DNA of 64,000 nt. Source: a virus. The notes under the pieces were generated by a model. That model did no database searches. It was not told the DNA's origin and saw only the letters and a program-made list of their open reading frames with translations. The position numbers and the translations under genes are program-made. Of the stretch, positions 582 to 59,355 are shown one piece after another. The number at the start of each line of letters is the position of its first letter. The first letter of the stretch is position 1. Location: positions 68,077-132,076 of IMG/VR virus record IMGVR_UViG_3300045988_110853. One strand, given 5' to 3'.

Positions 582-591
582 GGAAATTCCG

Positions 592-700
592 GCCGTGGCA
601 GGCGCAAACGGCCGGCCATTTTATCACACTATTGGATTTTTGTCAATAGGTAAAATGACTAAAAAAATGAGGTGAATTTTCACCTCATTTTTATTTGTGA
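592..700 (+). ncRNA. candidate antisense small RNA of about 105 nt (promoter 553-581, GC hairpin, terminator)
   Basis: A promoter, a structured GC stem-loop and a rho-independent terminator lie on the plus strand with no plus-strand ORF. Confidence 0.25.
661..696. terminator. hairpin GAGGTGA-attttc-ACCTC flanked by an A-run and a T-run (bidirectional terminator)
   Basis: Read directly. Confidence 0.6.
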
Positions 701-872: not shown

Positions 873-1064
873 TTAGTTCTCCCCTCTCATTGACCGCTCA
901 TAATTCTCAATCATGCAACGAACCATCATACCGCCGACGGAATAAGAAGGGGCAGGCTTGCCATTCACATAGTCCTTGATGATGATTTTTTCATCTTCGT
1001 TTAACTGGTTAATGCCCTCTTTGATAGCGTTAATGAGTTCCCAATTGTAAGAAGTTTCAAGCAT
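873..1064 (-). CDS. hypothetical protein (63 aa)
   Basis: Start assigned at MLETSYN with an AAAGGAAAGGA ribosome-binding site. The promoter TTGACA-N17-TATAAT at 1095-1123 is embedded in a hairpin. Confidence 0.55.
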   Translation of the reverse strand: MLETSYNWELINAIKEGINQLNEDEKIIIKDYVNGKPAPSYSVGGMMVRCMIENYERSMRGEN

Positions 1065-1094: not shown

Positions 1095-1123
1095 ATTATA
1101 GCACAAGGGGCTTATTTTGTCAA
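1095..1123 (-). promoter_or_regulatory. consensus promoter TTGACA-N17-TATAAT embedded in hairpin 1101-1134
   Basis: The -35 lies in the hairpin loop and the -10 immediately 3' of the stem. Confidence 0.6.
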
Positions 1124-1142
1124 GCCCCTTGTGCTATTTTTT

Positions 1143-1595
1143 TTAGCGCTCAGATACGATACTCAGATAGCGGTTAATCATATCCATTTCGCAACCCATG
1201 TCCCGCCAATCGCAAACCACATACCCAATGAGTTCGCCGTCTGTGGTAATCGGATAAACGCCGTAAGTGCTATTATAAGCAAATGGCTTTCTTTCATCTT
1301 CCCAATCAATAGGAGTGTAGGCCGGGAAGTTTTCCATACCCCGCAGTTTCACGGTAGTGTCATAGATTGCAATAGGACGCAGACCGGAATTTGATGCCAT
1401 TGTAATAGCGGTTCGCATAGCATCTTCGCTCAGCGAGCCAAGCACCGAATACCTCTTGAAGCAAACGCAGTCGTTATCTTCAATGAAGATTTCCAGCGGG
1501 TCGCCCTCGCGGATTTTCAGAGTGCGCCGAATCTCTTTCGGGATAACCACACGTCCAAGGTCATCAATTCTGCGAACAATACCAGTAGCTTTCAT
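1143..1595 (-). CDS. AbrB/SpoVT-family (swapped-hairpin, MazE-fold) DNA-binding regulator with an extra C-terminal domain of about 100 aa
   Basis: The N-terminus MKATGIVRRIDDLGRVVIPKEIRRTLKIREGDPLEIF closely resembles the Bacillus AbrB/SpoVT N-domain (MKSTGIVRKVDELGRVVIPIELRRTL...). The gene has its own promoter at 1626-1654 and an AAAGGGG ribosome-binding site. Confidence 0.75.
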   Translation of the reverse strand: MKATGIVRRIDDLGRVVIPKEIRRTLKIREGDPLEIFIEDNDCVCFKRYSVLGSLSEDAMRTAITMASNSGLRPIAIYDTTVKLRGMENFPAYTPIDWEDERKPFAYNSTYGVYPITTDGELIGYVVCDWRDMGCEMDMINRYLSIVSER

Positions 1596-1625
1596 TTTAA
1601 TTTTCCCCTTTCATTTGATACATTA

Positions 1626-1654
1626 AGTATAGCAGAACAAAAGACTTTTGTCAA
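1626..1654 (-). promoter_or_regulatory. promoter TTGACA-N17-TATACT for the AbrB-like gene
   Basis: Read directly. Confidence 0.6.
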
Positions 1655-1659: not shown

Positions 1660-2133
1660 TTATTCAAGATTTTTGCTTTCCGCGACAAAATATTTTGCTT
1701 CATACTGATTTGCGATAGCCTTGACTTTTGCGCTTTCCTTTTGGGTCGCGCAGTAAAAATTGAAAAGCGTATGTTTATCGCTCAATTCAATGTAAGAGTG
1801 TGGGACGTCATGTAAATCAAAATCAATGGTATTAGTGTATTTTGTCGGGACAGTCAGCTCGACTTTCCAAAGTTTATCCTTGCGCGCCTTTTCCTCAATC
1901 CACTTGACAAGGTAAACGCCCACGAAATTACAAACGGCAGTAATAGCCATTTTCAACCAAATAGGCATACCGTCCGCGGAAGTCAGCACAATTACATAGG
2001 AATAAAAACCGTATGTAATAGCATTGATGAAAGATGCGCTAAACTTTCCGCCCTTGACAGTCAAAATGCTTTTGATAGTTGACAGAATCACATTCACCGC
2101 CGTGCAAAGCGCGAACAGAAGAATTGTATTCAT
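1660..2133 (-). CDS. membrane protein (N-terminal TM helices plus a soluble C-terminus), 157 aa
   Basis: Intact ORF with hydrophobic N-terminal segments. The stop is TAA. Its start overlaps the stop of the next gene (ATGA). Confidence 0.55.
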   Translation of the reverse strand: MNTILLFALCTAVNVILSTIKSILTVKGGKFSASFINAITYGFYSYVIVLTSADGMPIWLKMAITAVCNFVGVYLVKWIEEKARKDKLWKVELTVPTKYTNTIDFDLHDVPHSYIELSDKHTLFNFYCATQKESAKVKAIANQYEAKYFVAESKNLE

Positions 2134-2989: not shown

Positions 2990-3166
2990 TTTGTCTATTG
3001 GCAGAATAGCCAAAAATCCGCTCGAAAATTTGTTGAATCTACATCTTGACAAAAACTCGGCGCGCCACAGTCGTTCGCGCGCCGGCCATTTTATCACATT
3101 TAAGGAACTTTGTCAATAGTGAAATTAAACAAAAAAAATCTCCCAAATTTGGGAGATTTTTCATTT
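2990..3166. repeat. intergenic cassette copy B (stem CGGCGCGCC..GGCGCGCCG, covariant with copy A)
   Basis: The stem-loop lies at 3050-3078 and is followed by ggccattttatcac as in copy A. Confidence 0.6.
3131..3166. terminator. hairpin TCTCCCAAATTTGGGAGA with flanking A/T runs
   Basis: Read directly. Confidence 0.6.
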
Positions 3167-5021: not shown

Positions 5022-5029
5022 GAAAATTC

Positions 5030-5140
5030 CGGCCGCAGCGTGCGTTGGCGGCCGGCCGAATTATACCACATTGAGATGGTTTTGTCAATAGTCAAATGAA
5101 ACAAAAATTTCAGGCGAGATTTGGTTATCTCGCCTGAAAA
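5030..5140 (+). ncRNA. candidate antisense small RNA of about 105 nt, a paralogue of the 592-700 element
   Basis: Same promoter/hairpin/terminator arrangement as at 592-700. Confidence 0.25.
5109..5140. terminator. hairpin CAGGCGAGAT..ATCTCGCCTG plus AAAA
   Basis: Read directly. Confidence 0.6.
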
Positions 5141-5798: not shown

Positions 5799-5827
5799 AG
5801 TATAGCAGAAAAGGGGCTATTTGTCAA
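5799..5827 (-). promoter_or_regulatory. promoter TTGACA-N17-TATACT within a hairpin
   Basis: Read directly. Confidence 0.55.
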
Positions 5828-5846
5828 GCCCCTTTTCTCATTTTTT

Positions 5847-6612: not shown

Positions 6613-6641
6613 ATTATAGCATATAGGGCTTGTTTTGTCAA
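6613..6641 (-). promoter_or_regulatory. promoter TTGACA-N17-TATAAT embedded in hairpin 6617-6650
   Basis: Read directly. Confidence 0.6.
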
Positions 6642-6659
6642 GCCCTATATGCTATTTTT

Positions 6660-7089: not shown

Positions 7090-7165
7090 ATGGTCTATTG
7101 ACAGCAAATTCCGGCCGCGCCTGGCGTGCACGGCCGGCCGAATGAATATGCAAAATGGAGCGTAT

Positions 7166-11936: not shown

Positions 11937-11960
11937 ATAAATATAGACTGGAGGTAAAAA

Positions 11961-13016
11961 ATGATAAAACTTGATTATTCTTTACAAACTCCAGAAGAAA
12001 GAAATCAATTAGTCGAACAAATTTTGGCTGATAATCCAGATCCGCCTGAGAAATATTTAGAAATTTTAGCAGACTATTTGGTTCTTTGTATGGAGAAACA
12101 AGAAAAAAAGGAGAAAAAATTATTAACTGATAACCGTATGGCAACAGTTAATAAACGTGAAACTTCTTTTGAAGGTCTTGTTTCCCAACTTGAAAATGGC
12201 GAAGATGGAATTTATAATTTAATTACAGATAATAGAAATACAATATTTCAACCACATATTACAATTACAAAAAAAGATTTAGAAGAAATACCAAGTTTAA
12301 ATTAGTTAAGAGAAGCCATTAATGTTTGGGAGGCTAAATTAAAAGTAACAGAAGGCAAGGATGCTTTTGTTATTAAAAAGGCTCTTATTGAAATGCGTAA
12401 AGATTAGTATGTTATGAAAAATGCTTATCGTCGTCCAATAGTGCCTACAAAATTAACCAGATCAAAGTCTTATATTCCATTAGATGATAAAACATTTATT
12501 TTTGATGATGATGGTTTTCCCATTCCCGATGGAATTAGTTTATTAAGACCTGAAATATGTTCTGCGGTTTTATGTAATTATTCCCGATTAAAGCAAGATA
12601 GTTGGGGCGAATATGATAAAGATTTATGGTATTTAATGGAGGATTTTGATAAGCTTTGTGATAAAGCCTTAGCTAATTATCCTCTTTATGATAGAATCGT
12701 TGAATATAAAATTGATGGTTTACAAAATATTGACATTCAAGAGAAAATACAAATGGAATTTGGTATTAAACATAGTCTTGAATATATTTCAAGTTTATGG
12801 CGTAATAAAATTCCAAAATTAATTGCTTCGACTGCGGAAGATGAATATTTAGATAATTATTATTTAAATGTTGAAAAAGGTAAATATAAAAAATGTAGTC
12901 GTTGTGGTAAAATAAAATTAGCTCATAATAAATATTTTAGTAAAAATAAAACAAGTAAAGATGGCTTTTATAGTATTTGTAAAAGTTGTCGAAATTCTAA
13001 GGCCAAAAAATCTTAA
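11961..13016 (+). CDS. hypothetical protein with a C-terminal CxxC...CxxC zinc ribbon (351 aa; 2 in-frame TAG)
   Basis: It follows a consensus promoter at 11908-11936 and a GGAGGT ribosome-binding site. Track ORFs 11961..12305 and 12414..13016 lie in the same frame and are joined by TAG codons. The real stop is TAA. Confidence 0.6.
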
Positions 13017-13065
13017 TATTGTCCTTTTGTTTATAATAAATAGTTGAAAGGAGAATATTTTATTT

Positions 13066-14253
13066 ATGGCTGAAACATATTATTGCGAAAAATGTAATCG
13101 TACAATGAATGGCACGGAATTCTATTCATCTAATAATTTAGAAAAATATCCTAATGATGGTAAATTTCCTGTGTGCAAAAAATGTATGACAATGCACGTC
13201 GATAATTGGAATCCAGATACTTATTTATGGATTTTACAAGAAGCGGATGTTCCTTATGTTCCAGATGAATGGAATAAATTAATGGAAAAATATGGGCGCG
13301 ATCCGCAGTCTATGACCGGTATGACGATTCTTGGACGTTATTTGTCAAAAATGAAACTCAAATAGTTTAAAGATTATCGCTGGAAAGATACAGAATTTTT
13401 ATAGTAGATGGCAAATAATAAATTAGAGCAAACTATGAAACGTCAAGGATACGATGCTCAATAGATTGCAACTGCTATTGAAAAAAGTTCTATTACTATT
13501 CCAGAAGGGGAACTAAAAGAGCCGGTTTATGCTCCACCGCCTAATGCCCCTACGGAAGATTATTTCGCACAATAGAGTGGTGAAGTGGAACAAGAGTTAG
13601 ACTTAACTGATGAAGACCGCACTTATTTAAGGCTTAAATGGGGTAAAACTTATAAACCTGAAGAATGGGTTAAGCTTGAACAATTGTATGAAGAAATGAT
13701 GGCTTCTTATGATATTCAAGGTGCCGGACATAAAGATACGCTAAAACTAATATGTAAGACATCTTTAAAGGCAAATCAATTGATCGATATTGGTGATATT
13801 GAAGGTTTCCAAAAGATGAGCAAAGTATACGATAGCTTGATGAAGTCTGGTAAATTTACCGCTGCTCAAAACAAAGCAGAATCAGGTGAATTTGTTGATT
13901 CAATTGGCGAATTAATTGAATTATGTGAAAAAGAAGGATATATTGAAAGATATTATGTTGAATAGCCACATGATAAAGTGGATTTAACTATTCAAGATAT
14001 GCAACGTTATACTCGCACTCTTATTGAAGATGAAACTAATATTAGCACAATGGTAGAAAAGGCTTTACGCGAAAATGCTAAAGAAGATGAAGAGAAAGCA
14101 AAGAACGCGGAAAGTGATATCGTTGATGATGCTGATTTAAGTATTGAAGAACTTGAAAAAACTATTAAAGATAGTGATTACGCGGATTTTGAGGATTTTA
14201 AAGAATAGGAATCCGCGCAAGATAATGAGTTCTTATAGAGTTTGGATAAGTAA
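13066..14253 (+). CDS. hypothetical protein with an N-terminal zinc ribbon (395 aa; 7 in-frame TAG, two adjacent). It may be the terminase small subunit, judged only by its position upstream of the large terminase.
   Basis: A GAAAGGAGA ribosome-binding site precedes it. Track ORFs 13066, 13585 and 13978 share one frame and are joined by TAG. It ends in a TAA that overlaps the ATG of the large terminase (TAATG). Confidence 0.55.
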
Positions 14254-15992
14254 TGGCATTACAAGATTTATTATAGTTAAGTGATAGTCGCAGAAAAATA
14301 GGTCTATCACCTGAACGAGTAGAAGCGGTGATGCCTACTATCCGCAAATACGTTGCCTTTTGGAGAGAATATCCTGATTTATTTGTAGATTTTATGGTGC
14401 GAGGAAGACGCACTGAAATAAAAGATGGAGAATTTAATTTTTATTTTTATTAGAGAGTATTTCTCCGTTCTGTTATGCGTTATTAGTATGTTTACGCGGT
14501 TTTCCCTCGTGCTTATTCTAAATCATTTTTGTCTGTTATGGCATTAATGATTAGATGTATTTTATATCCTGGTGCGCATTTGTTCGTTACTTCTGGAGGT
14601 AAAGAGCAAGGTGCTAGTATTCTTCATGATAAAGTTCAAGAAATATGTGAACTTATTCCAAGCTTTAATCGAGAAATTGATTGGAGCCGAGGAAAAACTC
14701 TTGAAGGAAAAGATAAAGTTAGATATGTATTTAAAAATGGTTCAGTTTTGGATAACCTCGCAGCTCGTGAAAGCACTCGTGGTCAGCGTCGTCATGGTGG
14801 ATTAATGGAAGAGTGTGTTGGTATTGATGATGCCATTCTTCGTGAAGTTATTATTCCTGTTATGGCAATTTCTCGTAGAGCTAAAGATGGCACTACCAAT
14901 GAACAAGAGCCATTAAATAAATCACAAATCTATATTACTACTGCTGGTTATAAGGGTACGTTCCCTTATGATAGACTTATTGGTTTCTTAGTTCGTATGG
15001 TGACTTAGCCCGATCGTTGTATGGTATTAGGCGGAACATGGCGAACTCCTGTTGCGGTAGGATTACAAAGTAAAACATTTATTACTGACCAAAAGAATGA
15101 AGGAACTTATAATGAAGCTTCATTCGAACGTGAATATGAATCTAAATGGTCAGGAACTGTTGAAGATGCTTTCTTTAATGGAGAGCATTTTGATAGAAAT
15201 AGAAAATTATTATAGCCTGAGTATGAAGCTTCTGGACGTGCAGGCGCGCAAGCTTATTATGTACTTTCTGTAGATGTAGGTCGTAAAGGATGCGATTCAG
15301 TAGTTTGTGTATTTAAAGTAACACCACAAGCACAAGGCCCAGCTATTAAATCATTAGTAAATATGTATACTATGTCAGATGATCATTTTGAAGATTAGGC
15401 TATTAAATTAAAGAAATTATTTTATAAATATAAAGCTAAAACTTTGGTTATAGATGGTAATGGTTTAGGTATTGGACTTTTAGATTATATGGTAAAATCT
15501 CAAAATGATGAAGATGGTGAATTTTTACCTGATTTTGGTGTTGAGAATGATGATGATGGATACTATAAAAAATATCGCACACCAAATACTCAATTTGATG
15601 CTATGTATGTTATTAAAGCAAATGCTCCAATAAATACTGAATGTCATGCTAATGCTCAGACTCAATTACAAGCGGGTAAGGTAAAATTCTTAATAGATGA
15701 GAGAACGGCTAAAGAAAAATTATTAGCTACTCAAAAAGGTTCAAAAATGACTCCTGAACAAAGGGCAGATTATTTAAAACCATTTACTTTAACCTCCATA
15801 TTAAAAGAAGAAATGATGAATTTACGCGAAGAAAATGAAGGTATTAATATTATCTTAAAATAGGCAAATCGCGGAATTCGTAAAGATAAATTTTCGGCTT
15901 TTGAATATGGATTATATTATTTAAAACTTGAAGAAGATAAAAAGAAAAAACGTAAAAAGTTTAATGCGGCTGATTGGTGCTTTTTAAATTAA
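14253..15992 (+). CDS. terL: terminase large subunit (579 aa; 7 in-frame TAG)
   Basis: Track ORFs 14529, 15021 and 15444 share one frame. A P-loop-like motif VFPRAYSKS is present. An ATPase segment reads IYITTAGYKG...VLGGTWRTP. A nuclease segment reads LSVDVGRKGCDSVVCV...LVIDGNGLGIGLLDYM. The gene ends in TAA at 15990-15992. Confidence 0.85.
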
Positions 15993-16004
15993 GGAGGGTG
16001 GAAA

Positions 16005-16361
16005 ATGCGTGCTTCAAGAGGAGAAATTAAAATTGAAGAAATCTTAGAAGAAGCAGGACTACCTTTTAAAATGGAATATATTTTTCCAGATTTAAAAAGC
16101 CCAAGCGGGCGTCCACTTCGTTTTGATTTTGTTATATTTGATGATGATGGAAAAATTGATTTCATTATTGAGTATTAGGGAAAATAGCATTATGAAGCCA
16201 GTTCTAAATTTGGCGGAAAACGCGGTTTATACCAGTAGCAATATAATGATAATCAAAAAAGACGTTTTTGCGCTTTACATGATTTTAGATTAATAGAGAT
16301 TCCATATACCGACGAAAACCTTATTTCTTATGATTATATAATGAAATTAGCAGGTTATTAA
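16005..16361 (+). CDS. DUF559/Vsr-like (restriction-endonuclease-fold) nuclease, 118 aa, 4 in-frame TAG. A homing-endonuclease-like insert between the terminase and portal genes.
   Basis: A GGAGGGTGG ribosome-binding site precedes it. The motif LRFDFVIFDDDGKIDFIIEYQGKQHY resembles the DUF559 pattern ...DF.....VE.DG..H. It ends in TAA. Confidence 0.5.
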
Positions 16362-16374
16362 AGGAGGTGGAACT

Positions 16375-18024
16375 TTGGATACGCAAGATCGTAATGATTA
16401 GATTCATGCTAAAGGTTTTGATATTTATAATAGTCGTTATGAATATAATTATAATGACACTATGGATTATGCCAATAGAAAAATAAAAGTTGGCACAAAA
16501 ACTTTAGATGATGCTATTTTAAAACTTGGTGATTATAGTAAGATTAGATACCCAGGTCAAACTCGTATTATCACGAAACCTGATGTGCTTCGCGCACTCG
16601 CGGAAAGAGATTTAAATGCTTTGCGATACATTTCTAATTTTTATTATGATATAAGTGGTGTATATCAACGAGTTTGTAATTATGTTGCTTTTTTATACCG
16701 CTATGATTGGTATATTGCAGCCGAAACTTATGATGATAATGTAAAAGAAGAAAAAGTTTTAAAAGATTTTTATAGAATGTTGAATTATTTTGATAATAGT
16801 TATATTAAAAAGATTTGCGGAGATATTGCTTTACAAGTCGTTAAAAATGGATGCTATTATGGATATATAGTTCCTTCAGAGAAAAATCTAATTTTACAAG
16901 AATTGCCAGTTAGATATTGTAGAACACGTTATAGTGTAAATAATACCCCAGTTGTCGAATTTGATATGCGATTTTTTGATACTTTTAGAGATATGAATTA
17001 CCGCTTAAAGGTATTAAAATTATTCCCAGAAGAATTTGCTAAAGGTTATGTTTTATATAAGCAAGGAAAACTTGCTTTAGAAGAAGCGGTTGGATGCTAG
17101 CATACTGGTAGTTGGTATGTTCTTGAGCCAGAAAATTGTATTAAATTTAATATTAATAATAGTGATGTTCCTATTTTTGTAAATTCTATTCCTACTATTA
17201 TGGATTTAGATGCAGCGCAAGATCTTGACCGCAAGAAACAAATGTAGAAGTTGCTTAAAATTTTAGTCCAAAAGCTCCCAATGGATAAAAATGGCGATTT
17301 GATATTTGATGTTGATGAAGCCAGAGATATCCATAATAATGCCGTTTAGATGTTATAGAGGGCTATTGGAGTAGATGTTTTAACTACATTTACTGATGTA
17401 GATTCTATTGATATGTCTGATAAGAATACTACTACAACGACAGATGATTTAGCTAAAGTTGAACGTAGTGTTTATAATTCATTAGGTATTTCATAGAATT
17501 TATTTAATACTGATGGTAATATGGCTTTAGAAAAATCAGTATTAAATGATGAATCTACAATAAGAAGTTTAATTTTATAGTTTAATATATTCTTTAATAG
17601 AATTATTGAAAAAAAGAGTAGTAATAAGAAATATAATTTTAGATTTTATTTATTAGAAACTACTCAAAATAATTATCAAACACTTTCTAAAATGTATAAA
17701 GAACAAGCGCAAATGGGACAATCAAAACTATTGTCTTAGATTGCTCTTGGACATTCATAGAGTTTTATTCTTAATGCAGCTCATTTTGAAAATGAGATTT
17801 TACATTTAAGTGAAATTATGATTCCTCCTCTTATGAGTTCTACTATGGGTAGTGAAGATATTTTGGGTTTAAAAGGTTCATCATCTAATAATAAAACTCA
17901 AAATAATTCAGGAAGTTCAGGTTCTGGAACTGCTAAAGCTTCTAATGGCGAGGCAGGACGTCCGGAGAAACCTGATGATTAGAAAAGTGAAAAAACTATT
18001 CAAAATAAAGAAGCAATGAAATAA
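16375..18024 (+). CDS. portal protein (549 aa; about 15 in-frame TAG)
   Basis: A TTG start lies 7 nt after AGGAGGTGG. The track ORF 16462..17100 and downstream fragments share one frame. The call rests on position after terL and on size. It ends in TAA. Confidence 0.6.
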
Positions 18025-18033
18025 GGAGGATTT

Positions 18034-19620
18034 ATGAAACATACAAGTATTAAATTAAATACACCTTGTGAGTTTATAAATATAACTCCTGTAAATCCTT
18101 TAATTTCTAAATGCCAAATTAAGGTTTGTTATGTAGATGATAAACCTAATCGTAACAAAAGCGTAATTACTAAAGATGTAGCGACTGAGATGGCTAATAG
18201 CCTTCCTGGCAGTCCTATTGTTGGCTTTTTTAATGAGAATGCTGAAGATTTTGAAGAACATAATAGGATAATTGAATTATCTAATGGCGAATTTAGAATG
18301 AGAGATAATACTCGCCCTTATGGTTTTGTTGATCTTGGAGCTAAAGTTTGGTTTTAGAAATTTTTGGATGATGGTGTTGCCGAACGTGAGTATTTAATGA
18401 CTGAAGGTTATTTGTGGACTGGTTAGTATCCTGAATGTAAACGTGTAGTTGATAAAGGGAATAATCATTCTATGGAGCTTGATGAAAAAACATTAAATGC
18501 TACGTGGGCAAAAGATAGTAATGGAAAGCCTTAGTTTTTTATTATAAATAAGGCAATTATTTCTAAACTTTGTATTTTGGGAGAAGAAAATGAACCTTGT
18601 TTCGAAGGCTCCCAAATCAATGTGAATTTTTCATTCGATGATGGTTTTAAGAACACTTTGTTCTCCATGATGAATGAACTTAAAGAATTTATGAAAGAAG
18701 GAGGACCCAAAGTGTTTACACAATATGCTGTTGAAATTGGCGATAGTTTGTGGAATTCTCTCTGGTCTTATGTTGAGACTAAATATCCTGGCGAGCCTAG
18801 TAGTTATTGTTCTATTTATCGCATTGAAGGCGTTTATGAAGATGCTGGACAAAAGTTTGCTATTCTTCAAAATAGACAAGACCAAAAATATTATCGCATG
18901 GACTTTTCTCTTACCGATGTAGAAGGCTTTGTTCCTTCTGATGCTTTAACTGAAGTAACTAAGTCTTATACTCCGGCAGCAGAGCCTCAGTTTGCTCTTG
19001 TTGATGTTGAAGCTTTTGAGACTGATTATGCTTCAAAGAAAAAGGCTGAGGAAGAGGACAAAAATAATAAATCTAATGGCCAAAACCCTGATAATAAATC
19101 AGAGGGCAATGATAATAAAAAGAACCCTGATAATGGGGAACCCTCTAATAAGTCTGATAAAGGCGACAATGGCGAGAATGATGATGATAAAAAGAAAAAG
19201 AAAAATTATTCTCTTGAGGACGTTGTTGAATATACTGAACTTAAAGCTCAGTATGATGAATTACAGACTAAATTCGCGGCTCTTGAAACTGAAAATAATA
19301 GCTTGAAAGAGCAAATTGCTCCACTTGCTGAATTTAAAAATGCCGCTGAGAAGAAAGATAAAGAAGATATGATTGCTAAATTCTATATGCTTTCTGATGA
19401 AGATAAGGCTGATGTTGTTGAAAATATTGATAAATATTCTCTTGATGATATTGAAGCTAAATTATCTGTTATTTGTGTTCGCAACAAGGTGAGTTTCGAC
19501 CTTGACGAAAATAATAAGCCCAATGGTGCTACTACTTTTAATTTGAACGATAATGGTTCAGAAGATGATGATATGCCCGCTTGGGTGAAGGCGGCTTTTG
19601 CTACCGCCAACAAAAATTAA
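18034..19620 (+). CDS. putative scaffolding protein with an N-terminal domain, a low-complexity K/D/N-rich linker and a C-terminal coiled coil (528 aa; 3 TAG)
   Basis: A TAAGGAGG ribosome-binding site precedes it. Track ORFs 18034 and 18577 share one frame. The coiled coil reads LEDVVEYTELKAQYDELQTKFAALETENNSLKEQI.... It sits between the portal and capsid genes. Confidence 0.5.
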
Positions 19621-19637
19621 TAAGGAGGACATACTAA

Positions 19638-20555
19638 ATGTTTAAAGACTTTTTGAATAAGAATCTTCCTATTAAGTCTCAGGCAAAGTATGTTGAGTTT
19701 GGTTACGGTCAGGTCGAGCCTAATCACCTTTCCGCACAAAGAAATGCTCAAATCTATGCTCAACTTCCTGCCAATAAAGACATTGAGATTCTTGAAAACG
19801 GTCAGTTTGTAAAGTATGACTATGCTGCTAATGGTAATGGTATTGGCGAAGTCAACTTCACTGGCGAAGGTGAATGGATGCTCGTTTATAACGAAATTAA
19901 GCTTTATCGTGATCATTATGATGGCAGTAAGCAGTGGGATTGCGAATTTGCTATGATTAAAGATGACTATCAGGCTCGTGTTTATAGCCCTTATGATTGG
20001 GAGCATACCGAGGTTGAATATGGTGGTCGTTTCTGGAACGGCGTTGATGAAAAGGGTCAAACCTATAAGTTAATCAATCAGACCGTTTCCGCAGATCAGG
20101 GTTTAAAGACTGTTACTATTGCTGGTCGTGTTTATGATGTTGATGAAACCGGCAAATTTACTTATGATGGTAATGAATATACTCTTGATAGTAATCATCA
20201 GGTTGCTAATGTTCCTGTAAAGTATTACTATGATAAGCTTCTTACTGATGTTCCTGATATGTATGAAATGAATTGGACTAATGATCCATATCATAAGTTA
20301 GGTATTTATCATGAGAAGTTCATGGAATCTGGCACTTCTATGGTTCCTCGTGTATTTAAGACCATGATTGGTGATCTTTATACTACTAATATGATTAATG
20401 AAGAGACTCTTGCTGTTGGAGATAAGCTTTCTCCTTCTGCTGCTACAAAGGGTATTCTTAGCAAAACTGGTGACGATTCAATGACCTGGTAGGTTGTTAA
20501 AGTTTATACTATGCCTGATGGTCAAAAGGGCGTCAAGGTAATGCGTATTAAGTAA
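19638..20555 (+). CDS. hypothetical head-module protein (305 aa; 1 TAG near the C-terminus)
   Basis: A TAAGGAGG ribosome-binding site precedes it. It ends in TAA at 20553-20555. Confidence 0.6.
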
Positions 20556-20572
20556 GAAAGGAGAAAAGGATA

Positions 20573-21679
20573 ATGTTAGATAAAAATAATTTAATTGCTC
20601 TTATGAAGCAAGTTGCTAAGGCTGATCCTTCTGCTCCTGTTGCTTATAGTTATGAGGGAAAAAATCTTAGTTATGAAGCCTTAAATGAAACTCTTCGTAA
20701 TGAAATGAATGAGTTAGCTGGTACTTATGCTCTTTATCGTGAAAATAAGAATCTTATTTTCTCTATGATTGAGCAGACTCTTGATGAGGTTCTTCCTAAG
20801 AAAGTTATTCAGCAATATGATCAGTTTGCTGAGGTTAAGACTTTCGCTCAGGGTGATAAGCCTATTTTCCGTCGTCCTCTTAATAATCGTGCTCGTGCTA
20901 AGTAGTTTGTAACTCGCGTTGGTCTTGCTGGTATTTATGAAGTCTTCAAGCTCGGACCTAAAGAGAATGAAGCCTTCGAGGTACGTACTAGCGCTATCGG
21001 CGGAGCTGCTCAGATTGGCTTCGAAGAGTTCCTTGATGGTCGTGTTGATTTCGGTGAAGTAACCAAGATCATCATGGATGGTATGGATGAACTTATTTAT
21101 AAAGAAGTCGCTGCTGCTCTTAGATCTTCTATCAATCAGCTTCCTCCTGCTAACCGCGTTGCGGCTGCCGGATTTGATGAAGCTGCTATGGATCGTTTGA
21201 TTACCATTGCTTCTGCTTATGGTACTCCTACTATTTATTGTACTTATGAGTTCGCTGTTAAGATGATTCCTCATGAGGCTTGGAGATATACTGAAGCTAT
21301 GAAGAATGAGCTTTGGAATAATGGTCGTCTTGCTACCTATAAGGGCACTAAGGTTATTATTCTTGAGCAGGGCTTTGAAGATGAAACCAATACTCGTAAG
21401 GTTATTGATCCTGGTTATGCTTGGGTTATTCCTACGGGCGCTGATGGTAAGCCTGTAAAGATTGCTTTCGAAGGTGGCACTATTGTTGACGAGTTCAATA
21501 ATTATGATCGTTCTCGTGAGATTCAGGTTTACAAGAAGGTTGGCGTAGTTTGTATGCTTGCTAACAACATCTGTGCTTATGTTGATACTTCACTTCTTGG
21601 TCAGATGTATACTTGGAATTATGATGGAGTCACTGGTAAGGTTATCACTTATGATGGCCGTCTTGATGGCACTGTTTAA
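20573..21679 (+). CDS. major capsid protein, presumed HK97 fold (368 aa; only 1 TAG)
   Basis: An AAAGGAGAAAAGG ribosome-binding site precedes it. Track ORFs 20573 and 21074 share one frame. The call rests on size and position. A strong terminator hairpin follows at 21695-21745. Confidence 0.6.
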
Positions 21680-21694
21680 TTTAATATAAATTAT

Positions 21695-21745
21695 TCCATG
21701 GGGAGAAGGGATTAAACTCCCTCTCCCCATATTTTTGTTTTATGA
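21695..21745 (+). terminator. strong hairpin GGGGAGAAGGGA..TCCCTCTCCCC plus a T-run after the capsid gene
   Basis: Read directly. Confidence 0.7.
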
Positions 21746-21765
21746 GTAAAAGGAGAAATTGAATA

Positions 21766-22359
21766 ATGATTAATAATGAAGATATTTATAATGTAAAAAA
21801 TAGAAGCACTAGTGTAGTTGTTTATACTATTCCTGATACTAATTTGCGCCGTGAATTTGCGCCCGGTGAGACTAAGCGCATTCCATTTGGTGAATTAGAG
21901 AAGTTGACTTATCAAGCGGGTGGCCGCGAATTGATTGCTAATTTTTTACAGATTTTAGAGCCAGAAGTAACTCATACTCTTAACGTTCATACTGAACCTG
22001 AATATAATATGTCAGAGCAGCAAGTTGCTGATTTAATTCTTAATGGCTCATTAGATGCTTTTTTAGACGCTCTTGATTTTGCTCCTATTGGAATTATTGA
22101 TTTAATCAAGAATTTGTCTGTTAGCCTTCCTATTACTGATATTAATAAGCGTAGAGCTTTGAAGGAAAAAACTGGGTTTGATGTTGATAAAGCTATTGCT
22201 AATGATATCGCTAGTAAAGAAGAAGATACTATTGTAGAGAAAGAACCTGCGGCTAAGCGTCGTGTAGTAAGAGAAGAACCTGTTACTCAAGGTCGTCGCA
22301 CAAGCGGTTCTGGATATAAAGTAATTAATAAAACCGAGGAAACTTCCTCCAAGAAATAA
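21766..22359 (+). CDS. hypothetical head protein (197 aa; no TAG)
   Basis: An AAAGGAGA ribosome-binding site precedes it. It is an intact ORF ending in TAA. Confidence 0.6.
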   Translation: MINNEDIYNVKNRSTSVVVYTIPDTNLRREFAPGETKRIPFGELEKLTYQAGGRELIANFLQILEPEVTHTLNVHTEPEYNMSEQQVADLILNGSLDAFLDALDFAPIGIIDLIKNLSVSLPITDINKRRALKEKTGFDVDKAIANDIASKEEDTIVEKEPAAKRRVVREEPVTQGRRTSGSGYKVINKTEETSSKK

Positions 22360-22378
22360 TTTATAGGAGGGCGATTAA

Positions 22379-22951
22379 GTGGGAACATTATTCTCAACTG
22401 TTTATAATCGCTTTCTTAACAAGGTTACTGATGATATGTATCTGGAGTTAACTCCCGAAGATACTTTAAGAGATTTATAGAATCTTATAATAGATGCTAT
22501 CCCTGGATTTGAATTTCCACGAAAAAATCTTTTAGATTATAATTTAGATGTTGCTACTATTAATGAATCTGATGCTACGCCTGATGATTTCATTGTAGGA
22601 ACAGTATGGGGAGAGCTTCCAGAACCGGGTGAAGAACCTCAAGTTTTAGTTGATAGATCCAGTTTTAATTGTGATCTAACTGAAGAAGAAATTAATATTC
22701 TAGCTATTTTAATGATGTGTGGTTGGACGCAAAGACAAGTCACTTCAATTGAGAACACTCGAATGAAATATAGTGGCTCTGATTTTAAATTTACTTCTTA
22801 GGCAAATCATTTATCTAAATTATTAAATTTACTAGGTGAATGCCAAAGATAGTCTCACCATATGTAGCGTTTATATAAACGTAGACGCTTAAATGACAAA
22901 GGTGAGTATGAATCTAATTGGGATGTATTTAAAAGTCGGTATGATTACTAA
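22379..22951 (+). CDS. putative head-tail connector/adaptor protein (190 aa; 4 TAG)
   Basis: A GTG start lies 8 nt after GGAGGG. It ends in TAA. The call rests on position only. Confidence 0.45.
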
Positions 22952-23249
22952 ATATAATTTTGATATTCCAGTAGAAAGTATAAAGGTCAATTGTTTGCGC
23001 TTAACCAACCAATTATGGAAATTAATTCCAATGCGCGAAAACAATGAAGATTGGCATAAATAGTTAGAAACTGTTATAAATGAAATTGTGGGGTTTAGTG
23101 TGATTTTTAGCGCTGAACCCCTTTATTTATAGCTATTAAACAAACTTGAGGGATTATAGAATCAAGATACTGATTTTAATTTTTATCGTAAGACTGTTTT
23201 TGAAACAATTAGTCTTTTATAGGAGATAAATTATGGCATCAGGGTTTGA
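22941..23249 (+). CDS. hypothetical small structural protein (102 aa; 4 TAG)
   Basis: The ATG overlaps the end of the previous gene. A frame of 103 codons free of TAA and TGA in AT-rich DNA is unlikely by chance. It ends in TGA and overlaps the next start. Confidence 0.4.
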
Positions 23250-24297
23250 TTATAGTAGTAAGCAACCTTTTAGATTACAACAAGGTCGCTTGGGAATTTA
23301 TGATAAACCACCCTTTGAAGGTAGCCCTGTTGAAGGCGTTAATTATACAGCGGTTCGGCTCGGTCAAATGGGCGGAAACCGCCAACAAGAACGTATGATT
23401 TTGTCTAAGCGTAGAAGTTTAGATAGAGCAGTATGGAATTCATACCAAGCCGCGGAAATTATTAAATAGGATGCGGAATATAAAAAACCTATTAGATGTT
23501 TGATTAATCCTAATAAATTAAAATAGGATTATGATGATAAGATTTTGTCTGTTGGAAATGAATATTAGTTTAAGCCAGGAGATATTTTTGAATGGTGTGG
23601 AACTAATACTTATTGGATTTGTTATCTTTAGGATTTGACTGAATTAGCTTATTTTAGAGGAGATATTAGAAAATGCTCTTATAAAATAAATTGGGTAGAT
23701 GAGGGAGAGAAAAAGTCTACTTATGCAGCAATTCGCGGTCCTGTAGAAACGAAAATTAATTATATTCAAAAACATGAAATTAGCGTAGATAATCCTAATT
23801 ATTCATTAAATATTTTATTGCCTAAAAATAAAGATACTTTAAGTTATTTTAGACGTTATACTAAATTCTATTTAGATAGTTAGGATGAGGGAGACAATTT
23901 AATTTGTTGGCGCGTTGAAGCTGTAGATTCCATAAGTATGCCTGGTATTTTAGAAGTCAATGCGACTGAATATTATATTAATGAGTAGGAAGATAATTTA
24001 GATGATAAGACTGTTGGTTCTTTAATTGCGGAACCGATTGATCCAAATCCTACAACAACTGATATTATAGGGGAAACGTTTATTTTTCCAAAGAAAACTT
24101 ATACTTATTATTTTGATGGTGAAGTTGTTTTAGAATGGAAAATAAAAAATAATAAAAAGTTGCCGGTTTCTTTAAAAATTATTAAAGAAGCAAAAAAACC
24201 AACAGTCGAAATAAGTTGGACTTCTGGATATAGTGGATAGTTCGATTTACTATATGGAGATTATAAAAAAACGATAATTGTTCAATCATTGTTTTAA
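23233..24297 (+). CDS. hypothetical structural protein (354 aa; 7 TAG)
   Basis: A TAGGAGATAAATT ribosome-binding site precedes it. Track ORFs 23233 and 23635 share one frame. It ends in TAA. Confidence 0.55.
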
Positions 24298-24312
24298 GGA
24301 GAAAAAGGTGTT

Positions 24313-24894
24313 ATGAAGATTGATGGAGTAAAAATTCCTAAATCCAGTTTCTTATCTATGGAAAAGGATTTAGAAATTGTCGTAAATCATTTATGTAAAA
24401 ATGAAAGATTAAAACGTTTATTGTATTATACTACCCCAGATGCTATAGACAAGCCAAATCTGGATGATGAACAAATGATTTAGTTATTTAAGAAAAATAT
24501 TAAATTAATTCCTAAATTATACGTTGATGGTAGTGTTTTAAATTATGTCGTAATTAGTTTTGATAATTTTATTCCTAATGATACAAATCCAGAATTTAGA
24601 GATAATATTATTGAATTCGATATAGTTTGTCATTATGATTAGTGGCATTTAAAAGATTATTAGTTACGTCCTTATCGCATTGCTGCGGAAATAGATAGTA
24701 TGATAGATAAAACACATTTAACAGGTATTGGAAAATTAGAATTTCTTGGTGGTAACCAAATTATTTTAACTGATGAATACGCTGGTTTATGTCTTATGTA
24801 TACTGCTATTCATGGAGAAGAAGATAAGAAATTTATGCCAAATCCCAATGATGAAGAAAGATTTTTAAAAGACTTTTAGGATAGAACTAAATAA
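24313..24894 (+). CDS. hypothetical neck/tail-completion protein (193 aa; 4 TAG)
   Basis: An AAGGAGAAAAAGG ribosome-binding site precedes it. Its TAA overlaps the next ATG (TAATG). Confidence 0.5.
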
Positions 24895-25619
24895 TGGATT
24901 TACGTTTAGGCTTAATGTGCGGAATTGATTTACCAATACCAGAACTTTAGGCTACAATTCATTAGCCAAAGATAAAAGAGATTGCTTTTGTTGGTGAAAA
25001 AGATTTCTTCCTTGGGGTTCAATGTCTTTGTATTGATAAAAATATAATAGCCAATTAGGGCGAAAGTCTTTTAGTTAATACGAATAATTTTTAGATATTT
25101 ATGACAATGATGAAAGAAAAAGAGATGGCTGAAAAAAAAGATTCAGTTATAAATGTTTTTTCTCTTATATTTCCAAAATATAAAACTTTATTTACTCCAA
25201 GATCTATCATTTTACAAAGTGATACTTAGATAATGATTGATGATTCAAATTTTGAAATTCTTTAGGAATATTTAAAGGAAATATTTTGTTTTAAATCTTC
25301 TGTGTCTCAAGAACTGGGTTTTAACCCTGCTAATGATACTGCTAAAAAAATTGCAGATAAATTAATGAGAGGTAGATAGAGAGTTGCTGAATTAAATGGT
25401 TCAGCTAATGTTAGTATATTTAGTTAGTATCTTTCAATGCTTACTGTAGGTTTAGATTCAATGTCTCTACAGGATTTAATGGATTTAACAATGTTCCAAC
25501 TTTTTGACCTTGTTGAAAGATATTAGCTTTATATTAATTGGGATATTGATATTCGGTCAAGGCTAGCGGGCGGAAAACCTGATGGCAAACCGGAGAACTG
25601 GATGAAAAATATCCATTAA
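24894..25619 (+). CDS. hypothetical protein (241 aa; 9 TAG)
   Basis: Start is coupled to the upstream stop. It ends in TAA at 25617-25619. It is very TAG-rich. Confidence 0.45.
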
Positions 25620-25643
25620 ATTTATTAAGGAGGAAAATAACCT

Positions 25644-26642
25644 ATGAAATTTGGTGTTCGCGAAATTTGCGATGTCGTTTTAAAGGCTAAGGCAACTCAG
25701 AAGGTTGGTAATAAAATCTTCTATAGAAATGAGCCAGTTATTTATTTCGACACTTTGAAAACTTCCAGTATGGAAGGCGCTGCTACCACTGTATATGCAC
25801 AGGGAGGACGCGGTAATGCTCGTTTAGTAGCCTGGGAAGGTGAGCGTACTGTTACCTTTACAATGGAAGATGCTCTTATTTCTCCAGAAGGTTTCATGAT
25901 TCTTTCTGGTGCTGGTCTTGTTGAAGCAAGTGCTACTAGTACTATTAAACAGCATGTTACTGAAACTGTAGATAAATCACAAATTGATAGTACAACTACT
26001 GAAGGACAAGTTACTATTCGTGTTTCTAAAAAGCCCTATCTTCCAACAGACGAACAAGAGAATTTTGCTTATGTTATGTTTGTCAAAGATGGCGAAATTA
26101 TCACTGAGCCTTTTATTCCTGTCCATGAGGAGTTAACTGCTAAGAAAGATACTAACGGTAATGAATATTTTGAATTAACTCTTAAAACTCCACATGATGA
26201 TTATATTGCTGGCACAGGTAATTATACTTTTAATGAAAAGAATGGCCTTCCAGCAGCCGCGGCATATGATAGCGCTATTGTTGATTATTATACTGAAAAG
26301 GCTAGTGGCGCTCAACAGATTGAGATTACTGCTGATAAATTCGGTGGTAACTATTATCTTGAAGCCTCTACTTTATTCCGTGATCAAAATGGTGTTGATA
26401 TGCCTGCTGAATTTATTATTCCTAACTGCAAGATTCAGTCTAACTTCACCTTTACAATGGCTTCTTCTGGTGATCCTTCTACTTTCACCTTTACTATGGA
26501 TGCTTTCCCTGACTATACTCGTTTTGACCACAGTAAGAAAGTTCTTGCTGCAATTCAAATTATTGAGGAAGGCGGAGCTAGTGACCTCCATCGTACTATG
26601 ACTGCTCACGACGAGGCTCACAATGCTTCTTTCACTGACTGA
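25644..26642 (+). CDS. major tail (tube) protein (332 aa; no TAG)
   Basis: A TTAAGGAGG ribosome-binding site precedes it. It is an intact ORF ending in TGA. The call rests on position upstream of the chaperone-like gene and the tape measure. A terminator follows at 26826-26866. Confidence 0.55.
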   Translation: MKFGVREICDVVLKAKATQKVGNKIFYRNEPVIYFDTLKTSSMEGAATTVYAQGGRGNARLVAWEGERTVTFTMEDALISPEGFMILSGAGLVEASATSTIKQHVTETVDKSQIDSTTTEGQVTIRVSKKPYLPTDEQENFAYVMFVKDGEIITEPFIPVHEELTAKKDTNGNEYFELTLKTPHDDYIAGTGNYTFNEKNGLPAAAAYDSAIVDYYTEKASGAQQIEITADKFGGNYYLEASTLFRDQNGVDMPAEFIIPNCKIQSNFTFTMASSGDPSTFTFTMDAFPDYTRFDHSKKVLAAIQIIEEGGASDLHRTMTAHDEAHNASFTD

Positions 26643-26816
26643 TGATTATTAAAGGTAAACGTTGGAACATCCAAAAGAAAACTGAGGAAGTAAAAAACAA
26701 CAATACCAAGAAAGAGAAAAAAGCTGTTAAATCTATCAAGGTTCCTGAAGAACCTGTGATTTCTGAAGAAGAAATTGATGAGGTCAGCAAATTCTTTAAT
26801 TTAGATAAAGAATAAT
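26643..26816 (+). CDS. possible small lysine-rich ORF (57 aa) just after the tail-protein stop
   Basis: An ATG abuts the TGA of the upstream gene. There is no ribosome-binding site. It could be a frameshift extension or a small gene. Confidence 0.2.
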
Positions 26817-26825
26817 TTTATGGGA

Positions 26826-26866
26826 GAGAATAGAAATATTCTCTCCCATTTTTTTTATTTAGAGAG
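26826..26866 (+). terminator. hairpin GGGAGAGAATA..TATTCTCTCCC plus a T-run after the major tail protein
   Basis: Read directly. Confidence 0.7.
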
Positions 26867-26880
26867 AAAGGAGAGATAAT

Positions 26881-27987
26881 ATGAATTCATTATAGAGAAG
26901 TATTAAGGCCAGTCCAAGAGAAATGAATACAGAAGATTTTTTAAAGAAATCTTATGAATTTACAAAAAGAAGTATGAGTTAGAAATTAAGAGCAAGAGAT
27001 ACTTCTGAAAAACAAGCTAAAAAATTAGAAGAATTCTTTCAAAGTATTCAAAATAGATAGCTTGGAAATCCTATCGAAAATATCCAAATGAGTGAATTAT
27101 TAGATGCTTTAGAATAGATTAATCCTTAGCTTTTTAATTCAATGAAATATTTATTTACTACGCCAGATAACTATGGAGATTCTAATGATGCGCATGGTAA
27201 ATATTTTGAAGGAGTTATTGCGGAAGCGGTTGCCACTGCGGAGAATTATTTTGCTGGTAATAAAACTATGACTATAAGTGGAAGTAGTAAAAAGGCTGGA
27301 ACCGCTTCTGTTAACCTTATAGATTTAGCAAAGAATTTAGATGAAGATACAAAAAGTCTAATGAATGATATTTATTAGAAAACTGCCCAAGAAATGAAAA
27401 AAGATAGTGAAGCTGCATCTTCTACAATAAAAGGAGTTTCTGGCAAAGCGGATATTATAGGAATTTAGTAGAATTATACAATATAGAAAACTAGTCATTT
27501 AGAATTAGATGAAGAAATTTATGATGCTTTATTAAATGCTACTTTTACTGCGAAAAATTATATGTCTAACACTTAGATTGAATTAGGATCTACTAATCCT
27601 TTTCGTGTTTTTATGACTATGATTCCTCTTGGAGGAGCTACAAGTAAAATTTAGAGATATTACCGTATGTTGGCTTGTAAATAGAAGCACTTTCCTGATA
27701 AGCATCCTGATGCACCAAAGTATTTTTATAGATTAAGAGCTATTTATGAATTAACTGGTGGAAAATCTAATTATACTAATACTGTATTAAATAAGCTAAT
27801 AGGTGGAAATTATACTAAATTTTTAGTTTTAAATTTATAGGGATATATAAGAGTTATTCCTACTTAGAGTGTCATAAAAGAGCTTATTGACAATATTGAT
27901 GATGATTAGTTTAATAAAGATATAGATTGGCAAAAGGCTTTATATGGACGTATTAGGATTAATCAAAATAAGTTTAGTGAAATTTAA
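26881..27987 (+). CDS. hypothetical protein (368 aa; about 17 in-frame TAG, the highest density in the window)
   Basis: A GAGAAAGGAGAG ribosome-binding site precedes it. The track ORF 27142..27378 is an internal fragment. It ends in TAA at 27985-27987. Confidence 0.5.
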
Positions 27988-27989
27988 AA

Positions 27990-28018
27990 TTGACTAAATA
28001 GAAAATTTTTTGTATAAT
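27990..28018 (+). promoter_or_regulatory. internal promoter TTGACT-N17-TATAAT upstream of the chaperone-like gene
   Basis: Read directly. Confidence 0.5.
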
Positions 28019-28045
28019 ATAATAAAGAGTAAAAGGAGGCTAATT

Positions 28046-28579
28046 ATGGCTAAAATTTCATATACTAAATTAGGAATTGGCAAGGAAGAATTGAATAAAG
28101 TTCAGACTGTAGAATATAATGATCAAACCATTGAAGTAAAGCAATATCTTCCAGTTGCAGAAAAGAGTGAATTAATTACTCGTGTATTAAATAATTCTGT
28201 AGATGAAGATAATGGATATTATAATCTTTTAAAGATGGATATGCATCTTGCACTTGAGATTGTTTATGCTTATAGCAATATTAATTTTACAGAAAAGCAA
28301 AAAGAGGATTCAGCGAAGCTTTATGATATGCTTAATGCTTCAAAGGTGCTTAATCTTATTATTGGTCTTATTCCAGAGGGGGAGTTTTATTATTTAAATA
28401 AGACTGTCCATGAAATGGCTAATAATATTGTGGCTTATCGCAATTCCGCGATGGGAATTATGGAGCGCATTACTACTGATTATAGCAATTTAAATTTTGA
28501 TGCTAGCACAATTCAGAAAGAGCTTGCCGATCCTAATAATATGACTTTATTGAAAGATATTCTCACTAAATTGGGCTAA
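28046..28579 (+). CDS. putative tail assembly chaperone (177 aa; no TAG)
   Basis: Its own promoter TTGACT-N17-TATAAT lies at 27990-28018 with an AAAGGAGG ribosome-binding site. The track start at 28010 is probably too far upstream. A terminator follows at 28621-28665. Confidence 0.45.
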   Translation: MAKISYTKLGIGKEELNKVQTVEYNDQTIEVKQYLPVAEKSELITRVLNNSVDEDNGYYNLLKMDMHLALEIVYAYSNINFTEKQKEDSAKLYDMLNASKVLNLIIGLIPEGEFYYLNKTVHEMANNIVAYRNSAMGIMERITTDYSNLNFDASTIQKELADPNNMTLLKDILTKLG

Positions 28580-28620
28580 TTAAATTATTTAATTTAATTA
28601 ATTTTTTAAAGTCATTAGAG

Positions 28621-28665
28621 TAATGGGGATAAGAGTATTTTATTACTCTTATCCCCTTTTTATTT
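28621..28665 (+). terminator. hairpin GGGGATAAGAGTA..TACTCTTATCCCC plus a T-run
   Basis: Read directly. Confidence 0.65.
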
Positions 28666-28708
28666 TTATTTTGCAAAGTAAAAATTAAGAGAGAAAGGAG
28701 ATTTTTTG

Positions 28709-37627: not shown

Positions 37628-37631
37628 AATT

Positions 37632-37672
37632 AAGGGTGAGGTCGCGGACTTCACCCTTTTTCTTTTTGGGTA
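37632..37672 (+). terminator. hairpin GGGTGAGGTCGCGGACTTCACCC plus a T-run after the tape measure gene
   Basis: Read directly. Confidence 0.7.
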
Positions 37673-37740
37673 ATTATATTGAATAAAATTAATTAATTTT
37701 TTAGAAAATTATAGAGTAATGAGTAAAAGGAGGGATTATT

Positions 37741-40700: not shown

Positions 40701-41190
40701 AGGAAATATTACAACAAATAATATTACTGTAAATAGTGGAACATTTAAAGATGATATTATTATTAATTATAATGGTGTAGCTGGGTCTACTTGGACCTAT
40801 GGCAATTAGAGTTTAAATTATATATTGAATAAGATTGGAAGTACGGCAGCTGAAGCTAGTAAAGCTGCTAAGGAAGCTAAAGATCTTACTGAAGCATCTG
40901 TAGGATGGATTGACAGAATAGATCAAGCTTAGGGTAGAGCTGATGAAGCTATTAGTGGACTATCATATGTTGGTGAAGTTCTTAATTATAAAAGAGAAAC
41001 TGGAAATGTCTATTTGCATTATTGGGGGCAAACGGGCTACGGATAGCCTCGAGTATATTTAGACGGCACTATCGCGGGTTTATCCGCTGGAAGAAGTGCT
41101 TTAAATGTGTCTGATACATCTGTTTATTTACAGGGAGAAGTAAAAATAATTGGTTCATTAACAGTTAATGGAAAAGAAATTACTGGTTAA
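37741..41190 (+). CDS. distal-tail-like protein with a long C-terminal fibre-like extension (about 1149 aa; about 35 TAG)
   Basis: A TTG start follows AAAGGAGGG. Track ORFs 37741, 38215, 39268 and 39787 share frame 1. It ends in TAA. The C-terminus has a beta-rich fibre-like sequence with a coiled segment. Confidence 0.55.
38196..38275 (+). other. GC-rich island of 80 nt (about 60% GC) inside an otherwise about 30% GC gene
   Basis: The sequence is CAAGGATTTACGCGGTTGGGCCTGCGCGCTGATTTTCGCGCCTGGCTTGAAACGCTCGGCGTAGTCAGTGG. It contains a GCGCG..CGCGC hairpin. It resembles the GC-rich hairpins of the early-region cassettes. Confidence 0.5.
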
Positions 41191-41207
41191 AAAGGAGAAA
41201 AAGGAAA

Positions 41208-41384: not shown

Positions 41385-41385
41385 A

Positions 41386-46558: not shown

Positions 46559-46571
46559 GGAGGACCACTAA

Positions 46572-46916: not shown

Positions 46917-46918
46917 TA

Positions 46919-59346: not shown

Positions 59347-59355
59347 GGATAAAAT

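Follow-up and report, generated by a model that had tools for sequence, protein, structure and literature searches.

What is a small protein with an AbrB/SpoVT/MazE-type DNA-binding domain doing in a gut phage: does it copy a host developmental regulator, control the phage's own genes or act as an antitoxin? We address this question for one gene in a 64,000-nucleotide stretch, hereafter the window, of the IMG/VR virus record IMGVR_UViG_3300045988_110853 (positions 68,077 to 132,076 of that record). A sequence-only reading had described a phage-encoded AbrB/SpoVT-family regulator with an added C-terminal domain, and it had placed the gene exactly: the CDS lies on the minus strand, starts with an ATG at 1595..1593, stops with a TAA at 1145..1143, contains no in-frame TAG and encodes 150 aa (Table 1). 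Judged by its sequence and a predicted structure, the protein has the two-domain SpoVT architecture and is a whole but compact SpoVT homologue.

Table 1. Features of the compact SpoVT homologue and of its gene, with positions in the window.
Feature	Position	Strand	Basis
Compact SpoVT homologue CDS, 150 aa	1143..1595	-	ORF list
Residues 1-50, AbrB/SpoVT swapped-hairpin DNA-binding and dimerisation domain	1446..1595	-	PF04014, TIGR02851, PDB 2ro5
Residues 56-150, compact GAF-like domain, ~30 residues shorter than its homologue, the C-terminal domain of SpoVT	1146..1430	-	
Deletion 1 in phage GAF domain: ~5 residues, after strand beta2			MAFFT
Deletion 2 in phage GAF domain: 3 residues, helix following beta2 region			MAFFT
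Deletion 3 in phage GAF domain: ~17 residues, between beta3 and beta4			MAFFT
Deletion 4 in phage GAF domain: ~8-10 residues, before last helix			MAFFT
Own sigma-A-type promoter (predicted), TTGACA-17 nt-TG-n-TATACT	1626..1654 (read 1654..1626)	-	promoter scan and sequence reading
RBS AAAGGGG, 9 nt upstream of ATG	1605..1611	-	sequence reading
16-bp GC-rich hairpin	1098..1137	.	terminator and promoter scans, sequence reading

The AbrB/SpoVT/MazE fold proposed for the N-terminus is borne out, and more strongly than had been claimed. We obtained a significant Pfam match to PF04014 (E 3.3e-10, 40.2 bits vs a gathering cut-off of 24.7) and an NCBIfam match to the AbrB family TIGR01439 (44.4 bits vs 28.3), both above the curated cut-offs for this superfamily. 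Among solved structures the top match is B. subtilis SpoVT (2w1t, E 3.5e-22), with the SpoVT N-domain structure 2ro5 at E 1.6e-20 and weaker matches to AbrB (E 6.8e-13) and Abh (E 3.1e-9). Because SpoVT is matched better than AbrB or Abh, we assign the domain to the SpoVT type and not merely to the AbrB-like proteins; of the earlier phrase "transition-state or sporulation regulator", the sporulation regulator SpoVT therefore stands and AbrB does not. The similarity is close: B. subtilis SpoVT shares 36 of residues 1-37 (K27/R is the sole change), and over residues 1-40 the mean identity to 54 chromosomal SpoVT proteins is 87%, which matches the identity found among the viral copies themselves (84%). 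The SpoVT equivalog model TIGR02851 (spore_V_T) aligns to residues 2-68 alone, giving 100.6 bits vs a cut-off of 235.9. Across the phage family no substitution is seen at R8, R9, R15 or R23, and conservation of R24 is at least 90%; R8, R15, R23 and R24 are the DNA-contact arginines of the AbrB looped hinge. Such strong conservation of the domain could come from structural constraint on the swapped hairpin and not from common targets. In an AlphaFold2 monomer model the N-domain has a pLDDT of ~70, as expected for an obligate swapped dimer. We also considered a cysteine cluster (C43, C45, C128 and C135) as a metal or redox site and rejected it, the cysteines being conserved in close relatives and lost in distant compact members.

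The C-domains of SpoVT proteins are only 20-30% identical to one another, vs ~95% similarity among the N-domains (PMC5061766), and because of this far greater divergence we tested the phage protein's C-terminal part on its own. A phmmer search with residues 56-150 against 1.84 billion representative proteins returned 13 clusters, in which the carriers of the whole domain are 146-151 aa long and share the same architecture; the search recovered the phage family alone, and chromosomal-length SpoVT was absent from its results. Seen in isolation, such an outcome might suggest a novel domain. Since a single-sequence search missed chromosomal SpoVT, profile and fold comparisons were needed to establish homology. 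We built C-only profiles from 16 phage proteins and from the 54 chromosomal SpoVT proteins, the latter taken from a scan of species-representative bacterial genomes, cutting both sets after the K(K/R)YS motif. Aligned with hhalign, the two profiles match with a probability of 94.8% (E 5e-8, 83 aligned columns). We used 16 family members to build an AlphaFold2 model, whose mean pLDDT is 83.9, and the structure prediction that had been proposed for the C-terminal part yields a folded GAF-like domain with values of 88-96 in blocks of ten residues. When the model was compared with the PDB by Foldseek, the top match was full-length SpoVT (2w1t_A, E 4.8e-11, 173 columns, TM 0.64), and dozens of GAF domains came next. 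The GAF likeness is visible at the profile-profile and fold level only: Pfam at E up to 1 gives no family besides PF04014 and hence no GAF profile match. From the hhalign match, the AlphaFold2 model and the Foldseek match to SpoVT, we conclude that the C-terminal part is the ancestral SpoVT GAF-like domain reduced in size, and not an addition. The earlier description of roughly 100 unrelated, added residues thus gives way to the hhalign and Foldseek matches and to the residue-by-residue mapping that follows.

A MAFFT alignment of the phage and chromosomal proteins was used to map where the domain has been shortened. Four deletions (Table 1) together explain the ~30-residue difference between the 150-aa phage protein and chromosomal SpoVT of 175-185 aa, and most of the lost residues fall in the connections between strands beta2 and beta4. 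In canonical GAF domains these connections cover the ligand pocket. Because the deletions sit there, the trimming may have reduced or changed ligand sensing while the oligomerisation core was kept. The retained parts are the first and last helices, the core sheet, the AIYD strand and the VYPIxxDGExxGY hairpin. Pairing the phage protein with SpoVT, AIYD stands against LI(S/C)DRD and VYPIxxDGExIGYVV against (A/G)PIxxxGDxIGxVV, and the final helix is likewise shared. The overall plan is that of Bacillota SpoVT (B. subtilis, 2w1t/2w1r; TIGR02851): a swapped-hairpin N-domain, a K(K/R)YSxxGxL linker and a GAF-like C-domain. For SpoVT itself no ligand has been identified (PMC5061766, PMC11237016).

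We encountered the compact form in phage and metagenome contigs only. An identical protein (P0001) is encoded on the 196,188-bp human-gut metagenome contig ERZ918917 k127_108033, near relatives lie on contigs of 185-197 kb, and metagenomic members number in the thousands with their length conserved. Relatives are encoded by 415 viral stretches in IMG/VR, and the viral proteins fall into length classes of 91-106 aa (the N-domain with a short helical tail only; 26 of the 68 proteins parsed), 133-157 aa and, in a few cases, 173-180 aa. The class with the compact GAF domain, 133-157 aa, comprises 34 distinct viral sequences whose identity to our query goes down to ~38%. Every one of the 54 chromosomal SpoVT proteins parsed is 175-185 aa long, a full size that the 150-aa phage protein does not reach. 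Among 185,579 species-representative genomes nothing is closer than ~45% identity over a full-length match; the best such matches (~36-45%) are ordinary SpoVT proteins of Clostridia, Paenibacillus and Alicyclobacillus. GenBank phages contain no near-identical DNA. In a comparison with a relative in locus L083 (dS ~0.8-1.0), the N-domain has a dN/dS of 0.02 and the C-domain one of 0.26, and by this estimate both domains are under purifying selection and the open reading frame is real.

Two other viral records carry SpoVT-like genes in different arrangements. The 108-kb record IMGVR_UViG_3300045988_122222 has two divergent compact genes ~4.7 kb apart (L110 and L117), with 55% and 45% identity to the query. 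The sole full-length match in a phage database, GenBank MT837014.1 ('Bacteriophage sp.', human faeces; L001), encodes a normal SpoVT of 182 aa; behind it, a 352-aa ORF has a sequence that, by its appearance, resembles a metallophosphoesterase or SbcD-type nuclease. This unverified 10-kb record may be bacterial rather than phage DNA.

The window itself reads as part of a ~196 kb human-gut phage with TAG-recoded late genes. Under the standard code its longest stop-to-stop frame is 396 aa; once TAG is treated as a sense codon, the plus strand from ~12 kb (11958..63451) contains ORFs as long as 2,981 and 2,568 aa, in which as many as 60 TAGs lie in frame. If Gln is placed at these codons, the translated arm matches families of the terminase large subunit, the portal and a virion structural protein, which supports the presumed phage origin of the DNA. 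We found no tRNA, suppressor or other, in the window. Early genes in the standard code combined with recoded late genes are a phenomenon already described (bioRxiv 10.1101/2021.08.26.457843). The left arm (1 to ~12 kb, minus strand) is a string of small genes that stop with TAA (19) or TGA (8) only, and its GC content is ~0.40, vs ~0.30 for the right arm. Every one of the window's 12 perfect TTGACA-N16-18-TATAAT promoters, where 0.07 would be expected, is located there, and 10 of them share the minus strand with the genes. The SpoVT homologue is served by its own promoter, predicted to agree with the consensus at 11 of 12 positions and to have an extended -10 element. Altogether, this consensus-like promoter, the promoter-rich left arm and the TAA/TGA stops there, set against the TAG-recoded late arm, support the view that the gene is an early gene read by the host vegetative RNA polymerase, and the early-type module that had been suggested agrees with them. 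Unlike spoVT at its chromosomal locus under a sigma-G promoter, this copy is phage-encoded behind a predicted early promoter of the sigma-A consensus.

The first gene of the late arm (11961..13016, plus strand; 351 aa, 2 in-frame TAGs) matches PHROG 5767, 'sigma factor', at E 9e-55, and its product has a C-terminal zinc-ribbon or HNH-like segment. We considered this product as a sigma-F/G-like partner of the SpoVT homologue; it has no Pfam sigma-70 domain, and the idea found no support.

Several of the early promoters are associated with hairpins. The one behind the SpoVT homologue begins 5 nt past the stop codon, and its loop and 3′ arm contain a perfect promoter (1123..1095, minus strand) for the gene that comes next. 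Because the T-run lies on the plus strand side, termination of the SpoVT transcript at this hairpin is uncertain. Early promoters with the -35 TTGACA in a GC-rich hairpin loop are found at 1098..1137, 5807..5838, 6616..6655, ~4434 and ~4649; their stems vary in sequence between copies while complementarity is kept, and an A-run upstream on the gene strand forms a T-run on the opposite strand. These structures may be terminators of antisense transcription combined with promoters. In a second arrangement, three consensus sigma-A promoters (at about 585..646, 3055..3116 and 5027..5088, minus strand) lead not into an RBS and an ORF but into a conserved GC-rich hairpin, GGCCGGC(C)G...CGGCCGG AATTT, situated where transcription is predicted to begin. 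A second promoter-like site (TAGACA-17-TATACT or TAAAAT) lies ~100 nt downstream of each such hairpin, and a fourth copy of the hairpin type is present at 7137..7111. The units that start with this hairpin may be short phage RNAs or leader structures; an Rfam scan of the window returned zero families.

Directly downstream of the SpoVT homologue, a 63-aa protein (873..1064, minus strand; promoter 1123..1095) contains the motif (SVGGMMVRCMIENYE) by which alpha/beta-type small acid-soluble spore proteins bind DNA through their C-terminus. Each of the 10 members of its family matches the Pfam SASP family PF00269 at E <=0.01 (best 2.8e-6), and the copy in the window scores 21.6 bits vs a cut-off of 22, over profile positions 42-59 only. 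Chromosomal sspA and sspB are genes that SpoVT activates; in C. difficile sspA/sspB expression and the formation of heat-resistant spores require SpoVT (PMC3789822). We nevertheless rejected a functional tie between the two phage genes: the motif match is real, but they are adjacent in 1 of 85 viral or metagenomic loci, this contig only. On the upstream side, a gene at 1660..2133 (minus strand) encodes a 157-aa protein with a hydrophobic N-terminal half and a weak match to NF003194 (PRK04164.1-5, 'hypothetical protein'; E 1.3e-4, far below the cut-off). It does not adjoin the SpoVT homologue in other phages.

Sporulation regulators, including spoVT (K04769) and a truncated spo0A, have been reported in the human-gut virome (Schwartz et al. 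2023, mBio; PMC10294663). The same study reported that spoVT homologues are over-represented in phages that infect spore-formers and that Spo0A copies in phages are without the sensor (receiver) domain (PMC10294663). Our protein resembles those spo0A copies in that the signal-sensing part is reduced, but its GAF domain is trimmed and not removed. That report gives spoVT at the KEGG level only, without domain analysis, promoter context or length comparison. With short phage AbrB-like proteins (PHROG 4681; the 'AbrB family transcriptional regulator' of Paenibacillus and Bacillus phages) our protein has the N-domain in common; unlike it, those proteins are ~87-106 aa long and end in a short helical tail, lacking a GAF-like domain. 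By structure, the top viral match in BFVD is A0A8S5PY96 (Foldseek E 1.2e-5, 29% identity), a 137-aa predicted protein from the gut-virome phage Siphoviridae sp. ct2vX3 that is distant in sequence and named 'Stage V sporulation protein T' by similarity. Its existence means that short viral SpoVT forms have already been deposited and named, and because spoVT homologues in gut phages are already published, the advance made here is incremental. In the literature that we searched, we found no description of a ~30-residue GAF reduction in viral vs chromosomal copies, of its mapping to the connections of the fold or of an early sigma-A promoter context. The compact-domain pattern of viral SpoVT thus appears to be undescribed.

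What could such a protein do? We think that its most likely role is that of an early, mistimed SpoVT mimic acting at host SpoVT/AbrB-type sites, a tentative proposal to which we give slightly less than even confidence. Host RNA polymerase would make the compact SpoVT immediately upon infection, and its timing and compartment would be wrong relative to those of host spoVT, which is sigma-G dependent and forespore specific. Having the same DNA-binding surface, it would occupy host SpoVT/AbrB-type sites or, as an alternative step, it would form mixed oligomers with host SpoVT-family proteins. Either route would lead to mis-regulation of the forespore (sigma-F/sigma-G) programme, and the most plausible outcome would be that spore maturation is blocked or diverted and the infected cell remains productive. 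The trimmed GAF domain would probably be chiefly an oligomerisation module whose response to ligands is weakened or changed. For gene activation SpoVT depends on sigma-G, which vegetative cells lack. Because activation has this requirement, only repressor or competitor activities would act early on. When made under sigma-G in the forespore, SpoVT acts as a repressor of at least 27 sigma-G transcription units and as an activator of others, the GAF domain being required for the modulation of its DNA binding (PMC3174212). The protein assembles as a dimer of dimers (PMC11237016), and no consensus binding site exists for it (PMC5061766).

The main rival to a SpoVT mimic is that a SpoVT gene acquired far in the past now regulates the phage's own transcription, repressing or timing early and middle promoters, its own included, and has no role in host sporulation. 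The same N-domain is common in phages with other C-termini, as in the 26 of 68 viral proteins of 91-106 aa, PHROG 4681 is an 87-position family of such short proteins, the gene is early and autonomous, and a compact form that is old and diverse in phages (~38% identity) would fit a core phage function. However, when the upstream regions of four relatives were aligned, they shared promoter hexamers alone and no operator-like motif; the N-domain has not drifted from host SpoVT as it might after retargeting, and the position and neighbours of the gene vary between phages. We therefore regard regulation of the phage's own genes as somewhat unlikely. Quite improbable, in our view, is a dominant-negative poison that, in place of binding DNA alone, works mainly by co-assembling through its N-domain or GAF helices with host SpoVT/AbrB-type proteins and inactivating their tetramers. 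The dimerisation domain is near-identical to that of host SpoVT, the first and last GAF helices are retained, and heteromers of AbrB-family paralogues are documented (PMC3025583); yet host SpoVT is absent until late forespore development while the phage gene is early, and the invariant arginines argue for DNA binding having been kept.

A further proposal of the sequence-only reading, that the protein is a MazE/AbrB-type antitoxin or an anti-defence protein neutralising a host or phage toxin, draws on names: its Pfam family is called MazE_antitoxin and PHROG 4681 is annotated 'antitoxin'. Scans of the neighbouring genes with Pfam, PHROGs, NCBIfam and PADLOC found no toxin, PADLOC matched neither the SpoVT homologue nor its neighbours, and in the four relatives compared the genes up- and downstream differ, with no conserved partner and none that is toxin-like. 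The best matches are to SpoVT and not to MazE, NCBIfam's antitoxin models fall far short of their cut-offs (19.6 vs 65 and 18.9 vs 55.9 bits), and the modelled C-terminus is a well-folded GAF-like domain and not a disordered toxin-binding tail. Because there is no toxin partner, no PADLOC match and no antitoxin model above its cut-off, this proposal is already weakly refuted and must be considered very improbable. Finally, the gene is shorter than its host counterpart and its product is well below the TIGR02851 cut-off (100.6 vs 235.9 bits), as might be seen in a decaying or neutral passenger taken from a host and without function. Purifying selection on both domains, a length conserved over thousands of metagenomic copies and many phage lineages, and the confident, compact model of the shortened domain refute this possibility, to which we assign almost no probability.

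An early SpoVT mimic, our preferred reading, also invites a broader conjecture, though one that is distinctly unlikely to hold as a whole. Gut phages of spore-forming Clostridia may have evolved a distinct class of sensor-stripped SpoVT, in which the GAF domain has been cut to a ligand-independent oligomerisation core that would be constitutively active or would poison host SpoVT tetramers, and whose early expression by sigma-A would derail forespore maturation. Together with the receiver-less phage Spo0A, this would amount to a general rule of signal-blind developmental regulators.

Sporulation is a refuge from phage and a key transmission trait of gut Clostridia, and the forespore programme has SpoVT as its chief accessory regulator. 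The compact SpoVT is thus a small and easily synthesised candidate for the reprogramming of late sporulation by gut phages. As a natural 'minimal' GAF variant it shows which sensor parts of SpoVT are dispensable, and it could help in identifying a ligand or ruling one out. The compact SpoVT agrees with the published view that sporulation regulators, spoVT among them, are carried by gut phages (PMC10294663), and it extends a pattern in which phage copies of such regulators have reduced sensor parts.
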